Positions 12,509-45,950 of a stretch of 64,000 nucleotides of DNA are shown here, piece after piece (the first letter of the stretch is position 1; every line of letters starts with the position of its first letter). This stretch comes from Octopus vulgaris (lineage: Eukaryota). The notes beneath the pieces are model-generated. The model made no database searches. It saw only the letters and a program-made list of their open reading frames with translations, and was not told the origin of the DNA. The stretch is from positions 188,728,001 through 188,792,000 of the forward strand of contig OX597815.1 of NCBI GenBank assembly GCA_951406725.2. The letters are read 5' to 3'. A program made the translations under genes and the position numbers.

Positions 12509-12737
12509 GTGTGTGTATATGTTTGTGTGTCTGTGTTTGCCACCCCCCCAACATCGCTTGACAACCGATGCTGGTATGTTTAGGTCCCCGTCACTTAGTG
12601 GTTCAGCAAAAGAGACGGATAGAATAAGTACTAGGCTTACAAAGAATAAGTCGTGGGGGGGGGGGTCGATTTGCTCGACTAAAAAGGCAGTGCTCCAGCA
12701 TGGCCACAGTCAAATGACTGAAACAAGTAAAAGAGTA
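12283..12737 (+). mobile_element. SINE family A
   Basis: Full head-microsatellite-tail match. Confidence 0.9.
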
Positions 12738-13219
12738 ATATATTTGTTCTATTACTTATGTAAACATAGATTTCAGAAAAATCTTAGTTATTCAAAAGAA
12801 AAATATAGAACTGAATAAAAACAACAAATCTATTACACTTCGAATTACTTTTTAATTTAGAATGAGTTTCAGCCTCTAGCCATTATTTAATGCACTTGAT
12901 TTCGTATATATTAGCTAAATATTCTCATTTTAATGACAGTAAATATATATATATATGTTACTACAAATTATGCAGCCATTTATAGATAGTTGAAATAGGT
13001 CACTTGAGAGTGTATTAGGCAGAAGAGCAAAAGATCTCTGATCCAACCTTGGGTTTTATCATGTGAATGACATTCTTTTTTTGCCCTTGAAATCATTACA
13101 AATTGATATTTCTACCATTTAACTTACTTAGGGAGGAGGGAGGGAGAGTGGAGGAGGAGGAGGATAGGCAACCAGGTTTCACTCACATATATACATATCA
13201 GAGCATAATCATCATTATA

Positions 13220-13344
<125 letters not shown>

Positions 13345-13506
13345 TGATGTAAATATGCCATTTGAATATGGCTAACCCCTAAGGGTGGATGCTACTGTAG
13401 TTTTTAGCCCCAGGAAGACATCTCCTCCAGCTGGCTATAGACACACTTTCTGTGCCCTATCAGTATTTGCAAAGGAAGCCATCCTTCCCGTCTTCAACTT
13501 ATGATA

Positions 13507-13551
13507 CACACGGACCCGAGTTTCAAGGTATTGACCTATCATCAGCGTGTG
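13507..13551 (-). ncRNA. Type I hammerhead ribozyme motif
   Basis: Mirror copy of 13658-13702. Confidence 0.85.
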
Positions 13552-13657
13552 ACAATCACAGTTGTCGATAGGAAGGAGGTTCTCTTTACAAATACATACT
13601 GGAAAATGTATATGTATTTGTAAAGAGAACCTCCTTCCTATCGACAACTGTGATTGT

Positions 13658-13702
13658 CACACGCTGATGATAGGTCAATACCTTGAAACTCGGGTCCGTG
13701 TG
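13658..13702 (+). ncRNA. Type I hammerhead ribozyme motif
   Basis: cacacg CTGATGA t aggt caat acct t GAAA C tcgg GTC cgtgtg: 6-bp stem I, intact core, GUC cleavage triplet, minimal stem III. Confidence 0.85.
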
Positions 13703-13864
13703 TATCATAAGTTGAAGACGGGAAGGATGGCTTCCTTTGCAAATACTGATAGGGCACAGAAAGTGTGTCTATAGCCAGCTGGAGGAGATGTCTTCCTGGG
13801 GCTAAAAACTACAGTAGCATCCACCCTTAGGGGTTAGCCATATTCAAATGGCATATTTACATCA

Positions 13865-13984
<120 letters not shown>

Positions 13985-14608
13985 TATAATGATGATTATG
14001 CTCTGATATGTATATATGTGAGTGAAACCTGGTTGCCTATCCTCCTCCTCCTCCACTTCCTCCTCCTCCCTAAGTAAGTTAAACGGTAGAAATATCAATT
14101 TGTAATGATTTCAAGGGCAAAAAAAGAATGTCATTCACATGATAAAACCCAAGGTTGGATCAGAGATATTTTGCTCTTCTGCCTAATACACTCTCAAGTG
14201 ACCTATTTCAACTATCTATAAATGGCTGCATAATTTGTAGTAACATATATATGTATTTACTGTCATTAAAATGAGAATATTTAGCTAATATATACGAAAT
14301 CAAATGCATTAAATAATGGCTAGAGGCTGAAACTCATTCTAAATTAAAAAGTAATTCGAAGTGTAATAGATTTGTTGTTTTTATTCAGTTCTATATTTTT
14401 CTTCTGAATATCTAAGATTTTTCTGAAATCTATGTTTACATAAGTAATAGAACAAATATATTACTCTTTTACTTGTTTCAGTTATTTGACTGTGGCCATG
14501 CTGGAGCACTGCCTTTTTAGTCGAGCATATCGACCCCATGACTTATTCTTTGTAATATATATATGAATGTGAGTATGTATCTATATGTATATATATATAT
14601 ATATACAT

Positions 14609-17968: not shown

Positions 17969-18088
17969 GGAGTATTCCAGCTTTGGCTTGGATCACAACA
18001 GTGTTGATAGCCCTGTATTCGGTTGAGTGCTTCTCTGGAGAAATACCCTAACTTCACACCCAACTGCCCTTAGCTATTTGCTCTATAC

Positions 18089-18320
18089 CTATTTCTTTAT
18101 TAATCACAAGGGGCTAAACATAGAGGGGACAAACAAGGACAGACATAGGTATTAAGTCGATTACATCGACCCCAGTGCGTAACTGGTACTTAGTTTATCG
18201 ACCCCGAAAGGATGAAAGGTAAAGTCGACCTCGGCAGAATCTGAACTCAGAACGTAACGGCAGACGAAATACCGCTAAGCATTTTGTCCGACGTGCTAAT
18301 GTTTCTACCAGCTCGCCGCC
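18089..18320 (-). mobile_element. SINE family B
   Basis: Family match; tttgctctatacc is duplicated on both flanks (TSD-like). Confidence 0.88.
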
Positions 18321-18495
18321 TTTGCTCTATACCAAATAGCGCTCACCACTTCACCTCGTTATGGCTTAACAGCCAACACCATTTGTTTTTAGTGTTTTGT
18401 TCTTACTGTCCTGTTTTTGTTACTACTTTAACCCTCTGCAAAAAATCCCAAATTATATTTAATTTGCTTTGCAGGAAAGATTGTTTTGATCAGCT

Positions 18496-18556
18496 CGTGT
18501 CTTGTCCCTACCTTTGAAACATGGAGTAGATAAAATAGGGGACAACTGATGAAGGG
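18496..18556 (+). ncRNA. Candidate non-circularly permuted hammerhead (family P1)
   Basis: cgtg TC ttgtccc ta ccttt GAAA catg [15 nt] gggacaa CTGATGA aggg. Confidence 0.7.
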
Positions 18557-18835
18557 AAAGTTCTTTATGTTGCATGTCTCGTTTCTCTGTTTTTTTCGTT
18601 GTTAAAAAAAAAAAATTTGTTTTCTGTTTTTGTTTTTTATGTTCTCATTTCTCATTTTGTTCATGTCCTGTACCCAAATACCATATATGCATGTATATAT
18701 ACATATATGTGTAGGCATGTACATGTGTGTGTGTATATATGCAAATATGTATATATTATTTATATTATTATATATATACATATATATACACATATATACA
18801 TACACACACGTGCACACACACACACACACACACGT

Positions 18836-45885: not shown

Positions 45886-45950
45886 GCAATGTCAAGATTA
45901 ATCAGCTGAAATGCAAGGATGATCTGGTTCTTGACTGAAGATAAAAGGCT
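45886..45950 (+). ncRNA. Permuted hammerhead family P2, mutated copy
   Basis: gcaa TG tcaaga ttaatc agct GAAA tgc [14 nt] tcttga CTGAAGA taaaa ggct; position 17 is G, predicted inactive. Confidence 0.6.

Follow-up and report, generated by a model that had tools for sequence, protein, structure and literature searches.

The window analysed here is 64,000 nucleotides of Octopus vulgaris DNA (contig OX597815.1, positions 188,728,001 to 188,792,000, forward strand). It contains a copy of a short repeat whose family, as we read the sequences, probably encodes an active hammerhead ribozyme with a split core (roughly three chances in four), at the 3′ end of a non-autonomous Penelope-like repeat that is likely mobilised by Naiad elements. 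In the fold that we propose, the catalytic core chain would be open between A9 and G10.1, because the partner strand of stem II lies upstream of the cut site and not after the CUGAnGA box.

Results

The motif in the window

A preliminary description had placed a permuted hammerhead at 18496..18556. On re-reading, strand a (18496-18508), strand c (18511-18523) and strand b (18539-18556) had the letters and coordinates described, as did the seven Watson-Crick pairs of stem I, the five pairs of stem III (one of them G-U), the GUC triplet with C17 at 18501, and a pyrimidine-rich tail followed by TA-rich repeat. The CUGAnGA and GAAA boxes, the A15.1-U16.1 pair and H17 are all present in this copy. 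The block order is S-G-C, which is non-circular and unlike that of types I, II and III (CGS, GSC, SCG). Of the permuted hammerhead as described, the core, stems I and III, the repeat family, the Penelope-like end and the predicted cut after 18501 were borne out; its stem II, drawn from the AGGG that follows the core, was not. The extent given was too short, since an extra helix (18481-18488 with 18531-18538) had been missed, and the real start lies 21 bases further 5′. The features of the window copy are the following.

18336..18773, + strand: 5′-truncated copy of a non-autonomous Penelope-type repeat of about 750 nt (the 3′ 430 nt of the unit), from alignments to other copies
18475..18479, + strand: proposed stem II 5′ strand, upstream of the cut site, with G10.1 at 18475; mismatched at 18478 in the window copy
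18481..18488, + strand: extra helix, 5′ strand; would extend stem III and stack beside stem II; its letters vary between families
18489..18495, + strand: internal loop, purine-rich 5′ side; decayed in the window copy, GAA in the family majority
18496..18508, + strand: block S, with a stem III strand, U16.1 (18500), C17 (18501, predicted cut after it) and a stem I strand
18511..18523, + strand: block G, with the stem II 3′ strand (18511-18515, C11.1 changed to T), GAAA (18516-18519) and a stem III strand
18524..18538, + strand: internal loop, 3′ side (18524-18530), and extra helix, 3′ strand (18531-18538)
18539..18553, + strand: stem I 3′ strand (18539-18545), CUGAUGA core (18546-18552) and one unpaired base after A9, where the chain would exit the core
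18554..18773, + strand: pyrimidine-rich 3′ tail ending in TA-rich repeat, the right end common to all copies

The motif is not due to chance. Dinucleotide-shuffled window strands gave no match (0/120) in S-G-C order with stem I of at least 7 bp and stem III of at least 5 bp, all within 80 nt. Plain, pseudoknot-free folding showed nothing special (z 0.25) and is uninformative for this motif because it is pseudoknotted. An Rfam search of 18400-18660 returned no hammerhead family among its matches at E≤10, and with the whole window as query only simple-repeat matches were seen among the 150 of 251 matches listed.

At 14 positions the window copy departs from the majority sequence of the family, and its 10.1-11.1 pair is G.U. 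Calculated stabilities were -1.5 vs. -5.7 kcal/mol for the upstream stem II, -4.0 vs. -7.3 for stem III and -2.0 vs. -5.8 for the extra helix (window copy vs. majority). The copy is decayed, and as a ribozyme it is probably slow or dead.

The repeat family

The genome comparison that the preliminary description had proposed as a check showed that 18440-18680 belongs to a repeat family, with 3843 first-look candidates in the 2.8-Gb genome. Forty of these were scored, and the 39 other copies were 81-87% identical to the window copy. An 18-mer spanning strand b had 963 exact genome matches (reversed control, 0), and copies occur on many chromosomes. Alignments of the window copy to other copies begin at 18335-18338 and run into TA-rich repeat, where they stop at about 18754-18802. 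A complete unit measures about 750 nt and has no open reading frame (ORF). The right end of the copies is fixed and falls within TA-rich repeat, while their left ends vary; they are mostly single and dispersed or in partial tandems, with tails often joined to a unit start. In five loci (L007, L023, L037, L055, L057) the 3′ end is followed by 30-45 nt of unit start, and in four (L028, L048, L055, L056) inverted truncated copies adjoin the repeat copy.

Penelope-like hallmarks given for Naiads in the sections of PMC8557442 consulted (Craig et al. 2021) are (TA)n targets, partial tandems, a 30-40 bp tail and inverted truncated neighbours. The repeat shows partial tandems, 30-45 nt tails, inverted truncated neighbours, a fixed 3′ end, 5′ truncation and a (TA)n target, and by these insertion hallmarks it is a non-autonomous Penelope-like element. 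Naiads have an ORF, whereas this family has none. No Naiad ORF was attached to the repeat in 90 loci, and a search for an autonomous partner with its 5′ part gave more ORF-less units and nothing else. The tie to Naiads consists of the shared fold and the insertion hallmarks. Two short terms taken from the repeat had no match in the parts of the PMC8557442 supplement consulted, where line breaks may hide one.

One locus, L193, was considered as a link between the repeat and a reverse transcriptase (RT) and rejected: its RT has its own motif and the neighbouring sequence is an inverted relative. That sequence (L193:414-649) and another 3′ of a family C copy (L398; family C is described below) are inverted, more distant relatives of the repeat with changed stem letters. 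In the window, a SINE-like insert with 13-nt direct repeats (18077-18333; repeats at 18077-18089 and 18321-18333) adjoins the 5′ end of the repeat copy.

The same layout in Naiad-like loci

Metagenome loci were collected with a GIY-YIG piece of an octopus-genome Naiad as query, and the best 80 of 437 loci were searched with a descriptor comprising the two boxes, UH, and stems I and III only. Ten matches were found, all of them S-G-C, on the sense strand and outside the ORF; two are near-identical. The antisense strands of the 80 loci gave no S-G-C match, and 30 shuffle sets gave a mean of 0.2 and a maximum of 1. In 8/10 matches there was an upstream stem II with 5-6 Watson-Crick pairs and G as its first base, while shuffles contained none with an upstream stem II of at least 5 bp starting with G. 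Contiguous stem II, formed from the bases directly after the core, amounted to 0-1 bp in 10/10. On a quick RT tree the matches are spread over three or more separate parts. No match was found in 70/80 loci, including a whole 29-row clade and some loci with short tails. Among 13 full-length relatives, the 11 that were aligned have an N-terminal GIY-YIG domain, CxC and DKA motifs and a C-terminal RT.

In the octopus genome, Naiad GIY-YIG and RT searches led to an octopus Naiad family and to a second, decayed family without a readable motif. A 17-letter motif of the published octopus Naiad consensus has 523 genome matches (control 0). At least nine loci of the octopus Naiad family have the motif on the strand of an RT piece, 0.9-1.8 kb to its 3′ side:

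L178, L202, L206, L209, L211, L216, L218, L224, L225: octopus Naiad loci with the motif 3′ of RT

The split fold accompanies ORFs with GIY-YIG, CxC, DKA and RT both in the octopus genome and in metagenome loci. Searches for Naiad relatives gave none in viral contigs and one 962-nt contig in prokaryote genomes. A further GIY-YIG element is abundant in the octopus genome (e.g. L089-L092), with open frames of up to 784 aa; from its sequence it is probably an active Penelope-type family of another clade.

The sections of PMC8557442 consulted describe Naiads as without canonical hammerheads and give no fold, while marking 'HHR_core' and eight 'HHR_half_core' cases in several Naiads, Naiad_Ovul and Naiad_Esco among them. 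By eye, the split layout with different letters is present in the supplementary tails of Naiad_Obim, Ovul, Amil, Aacu, Anas and Esco and in four further tails there; Aacu has one mismatch and Esco is weak in this layout. Our reading of that supplement covered 60/62, 30/43, 15/23 and 15/25 places of four core words, some being hidden by line breaks. In Naiad-1, -2 and -3_Nbra and three more nematode places the core is, by eye, the intact type CSG with the same extra helix (six tails, supplement S5, parts 13-16); type CSG is known from just two metagenome sequences in the consulted sections of PMC10085705. Other tails in the consulted parts 16-19 of S5, several spider and ostracod Naiads included, combine S-G-C order with a hairpin that separates stem I from GAAA and a further helix 3′ of the core, and are possibly other hammerhead variants.

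Stem II is best completed by an upstream strand

The preliminary description drew stem II from the AGGG after the core. These pairs can be drawn in the window copy, but they depend on T at 18515. Among 78 distinct copies spanning the motif this position is C in 65/78 and T in 10/78. The first contiguous pair is therefore A.C in the family majority, which is how the suggested check of stem II in the consensus turned out. The core is intact in 52/78 of these copies, and all features are kept in only 11/78.

The strand before GAAA finds its partner instead in a strand that precedes the cut site (18475-18479 in the window), next to the extra helix, and in the family majority this upstream stem II has five Watson-Crick pairs. 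Eleven examples were aligned, eight from metagenome Naiad loci and three from the octopus genome. Upstream pairs 1-4 are formed in 11/11; pair 1 is always G-C, and pairs 2-4 show three to four pair types each, as do the individual positions of stems I and III. The descriptor demanded the boxes and the A15.1-U16.1 pair, not C11.1 or G10.1, and G10.1-C11.1 is kept in 11/11. Core letters, U16.1-A15.1, H17 (never G) and G10.1-C11.1 are all kept across separate RT clades.

The order of strands is stem II (5′), extra helix, stem III/UH/stem I, stem II (3′)/GAAA/stem III, extra helix, and stem I/CUGAnGA. The extra helix has 6-10 bp in 8/8 metagenome examples, with letters that differ between families. 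Its 5′ strand begins 0-4 nt after the stem II strand and its 3′ strand ends 0-4 nt before stem I; in the window copy the latter (18531-18538) runs straight into stem I. Covariation is seen in all four helices. The upstream helix was chosen as the best within 45 nt, and the probability of finding one by chance in a single example is sizeable (0.007-0.25; 0.62 for L162), so the argument for it depends on all examples together and on their fixed geometry.

In our view the motif is very unlikely to be an ordinary type-SGC hammerhead whose weak stem II comes from the bases directly after CUGAUGA. Four such pairs can be drawn in the window copy, and if one base is skipped the ~750-nt family, its sister subfamily and the octopus Naiad family offer G-C and at least one G-U; an extra base at 9/10.1 is carried by Penelope hammerheads (PMC4209133, sections consulted). 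The window pairing, however, needs the minority letter at 18515, and the contiguous first pair is found in 1/11 examples (3/11 when one base is skipped) and in 0/17 loci of family B (described below), compared with 11/11 and covariation for the upstream strand. One calculation counts against the split-core reading. In the ~750-nt family the core's own G8-A9-A-G-G strand can pair with the same partner at -6.2 vs. -5.7 kcal/mol for the upstream strand, which in this energy model would be an alternative, inactive fold.

A ribozyme active only in a dimer or across neighbouring tandem units, as the minimal type I hammerheads of other Penelope elements are proposed to be, seems still more improbable. 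Dimer action has been proposed for Penelope hammerheads (PMC4209133, sections consulted), stem III of the ~750-nt family majority is self-complementary (CGCG), and partial tandems of this repeat are common. In the split fold, on the other hand, every helix closes inside one stretch of about 80 nt, and stem III is non-palindromic in the sister family, the octopus Naiad family and most metagenome examples.

Further families in the octopus genome

The split fold was found with different letters in four more families of this genome: a sister subfamily, families B and C, and the octopus Naiad family. In the sister subfamily C-G replaces U-A at pair 1.1-2.1, U-A replaces C-G at one stem III pair, and the extra helix differs throughout; the changes in stems I and III are compensatory. 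Families B and C both have members in the window.

34511 (core), - strand: family B; relatives at 45935 (+) and 17371 (-); 4351 first-look candidates
60045 (core), - strand: family C; younger, 92-95% identity, 1391 candidates

The samples of both families were the copies closest to the window copy, and that of family C is biased towards the broken window copy. The layout was present in 17/20 loci of family B, with contiguous stem II of 0 bp in 17/17 and at least five upstream pairs in 14. It was also present in 17/20 loci of family C, where an upstream stem II of at least 5 bp was found in 5/17 only. The upstream strand of family C is a highly variable G-run, its most variable part, the rest being nearly fixed; slippage, or the survival of uncut RNAs, could lie behind this variability. 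By eye, the internal loop that separates stem III from the extra helix resembles a kink-turn in family B and in the octopus Naiad family, and is loop-E-like (AGUA/GAA) in the ~750-nt family.

5′ ends of truncated copies

The predicted cut after 18501 agrees with the 5′ ends of truncated copies, which peak at the equivalent of 18502. In an unselected sample of 90 copies of the repeat, taken in chromosome order, 38 start within the 29 bases 3′ of the cut and 7-8 within the 29 bases 5′ of it, the latter including one inverted-copy artefact and one internal deletion. Five start exactly at the first base after the cut, and the offset 12 bases 3′ also has five. An AT-rich junction pattern over 13 positions gave 192 matches (control 1); the first 100 of these matches represent 29 loci, 20 of which were retrieved; one locus is intact and 28 are truncated. 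Fourteen of the truncated loci start at the first base after the cut, five and four at the next two bases, and five on the 5′ side. Two of the 14 are a duplicated pair, and AT-rich flanks blur several junctions by one base. The three positions from the first base after the cut thus hold 23/28 starts against about 6/28 for a flat spread, a comparison made for the cut position only. In two sequence variants the drop in 5′-end density coincides exactly with the predicted bond. For the octopus Naiad family, 52 copies gave no clear peak, and 4/6 independent junctions lie at the cut or one base 3′ of it. As a pattern in genomic sequence, the pile-up of 5′ ends at the predicted cut suggests cleavage in vivo.

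These ends could also have arisen if the RNA were a conserved but non-cleaving structure of hammerhead descent, such as a binding site for the Naiad protein or an RT stop, with truncations left by enzyme stalls in the knot. We regard this as unlikely, though less so than the two alternatives above. It would fit the high density of 5′ ends over all 30 bases 3′ of the cut and the spread of family C despite a broken stem II in many copies. Catalysis across an open A9/G10.1 junction is itself a prediction. Insertion of a Poseidon element in vitro proceeded without need of ribozyme cleavage, and no reads ended at the cut (PMC11167929, sections consulted). Stalling does not readily account for the sharp fall at the predicted bond in both variants, however, as no helix should persist at the cut once its 3′ partners have been copied, nor would a mere binding site explain why the catalytic letters, U16.1-A15.1, H17 and G10.1-C11.1 are retained in separate RT clades.

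Under the split-core reading, intact family members would likely self-cleave after C17 (18501). The extra helix may clamp stems II and I, so that G10.1-C11.1 stacks under A9.G12 without a covalent A9-G10.1 link, and the 2-3 nt linker would tie the far ends of stems I and II and replace the usual loop-loop contact. Cleaved read-through or tandem transcripts would leave RNAs whose 5′ end is base 1.1, and their reverse transcription would give genomic copies that start at the cut.

Relation to known hammerheads

The nearest described relative in block order is type SGC (HRIMA-1 and variants; Eckert et al. 2023, PMC10085705, sections consulted here and below). It shares with the split fold the S-then-G-then-core order, the core letters, an added helix joining stems I and II and a short linker between these stems (typically 3 nt in type SGC, 2-3 nt in the split fold). 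Type SGC has been shown to cleave and comes from metatranscriptomes rather than genomes of known organisms, whereas the split fold is known from sequence alone, in an animal genome and in retroelements. In type SGC the stem I strand, CUGAnGA and the stem II strand form one continuous block C, a continuity that PMC10085705 takes to be obligatory; the split fold has its stem II strand at the 5′ end, and we do not file it as type SGC because an unbroken block C is what it lacks.

Type CSG (PMC10085705) and the nematode Naiad tails (PMC8557442, sections consulted) have the same helices, the extra one included, and the same S-to-G linker. The split fold is a circular permutation of type CSG. In type CSG A9 is joined to G10.1 and the molecule starts before the extra helix; in the split fold an extra-helix strand, a stem I strand and the core have moved to the 3′ end. 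One Naiad-like 3′ UTR (L161, 2331-2460) contains a type CSG with 23 nt, forming two hairpins, between A9 and G10.1, and by its sequence it would be a natural intermediate between the two forms. The split form may have originated by head-to-tail duplication of a type-CSG hammerhead, as found in nematode Naiads, followed by loss of the outer halves. The route offered thus leads from CSG through CSG with an insert at 9/10.1 (L161) to the split form.

Minimal type I hammerheads of Penelope/Poseidon, Neptune and Hydra (Cervera and de la Pena 2014, PMC4209133, sections consulted) share the 3′ location in a Penelope-like element, G10.1-C11.1 and an extra base after A9. They have type I circular order, their stem II is a hairpin, and their stem III, minimal and palindromic, is believed to require a dimer, whereas the split fold is pseudoknotted, with a long stem III and without a stem II hairpin. 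Non-LTR retrozymes (bioRxiv 10.64898/2026.07.22.740005, sections consulted) are likewise small non-coding Penelope-derived hammerhead repeats with head-to-tail units; theirs are type I hammerheads in tandem arrays, while the ~750-nt repeat is mostly dispersed and 5′-truncated with a scrambled, split core.

No published description of a core opened between A9 and G10.1 was found among the open-access texts searched. Taking the evidence further, we lean towards a wider reading, held with less assurance than the first: that this is a seventh hammerhead topology beyond the six block orders so far taken to be the only ones possible, with the core opened at A9/G10.1 and reassembled by a clamp helix; that it is the usual ribozyme in much of the Naiad clade and in its parasite repeats, which would number tens of thousands in animal genomes; that it arose from type CSG through the elements' tandem duplication; and that it is active in vivo, its cut site being recorded as insertion 5′ ends. 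If true, this would contradict PMC10085705 on the inseparability of the CUGAnGA box and the stem II strand, and the statement in PMC8557442 that Naiads lack hammerheads. It would place non-circularly permuted ribozymes, so far from environmental RNA, in animal genomes at high copy number, and would give rare genomic evidence for Penelope-type ribozyme cutting in vivo. A hammerhead that requires a separate stem II strand could also serve as a scaffold for switchable ribozymes.

Elsewhere in the window lies a 348-bp inverted repeat of 98% identity (13251-13598 and 13611-13958, with a 12-nt spacer), flanked by an outer pair (12662-12954 and 14245-14537). By eye, each arm of the 348-bp repeat contains an ordinary type I minimal hammerhead, with cores at -13545 and +13664, and these resemble Hydra-clade Penelope ends.
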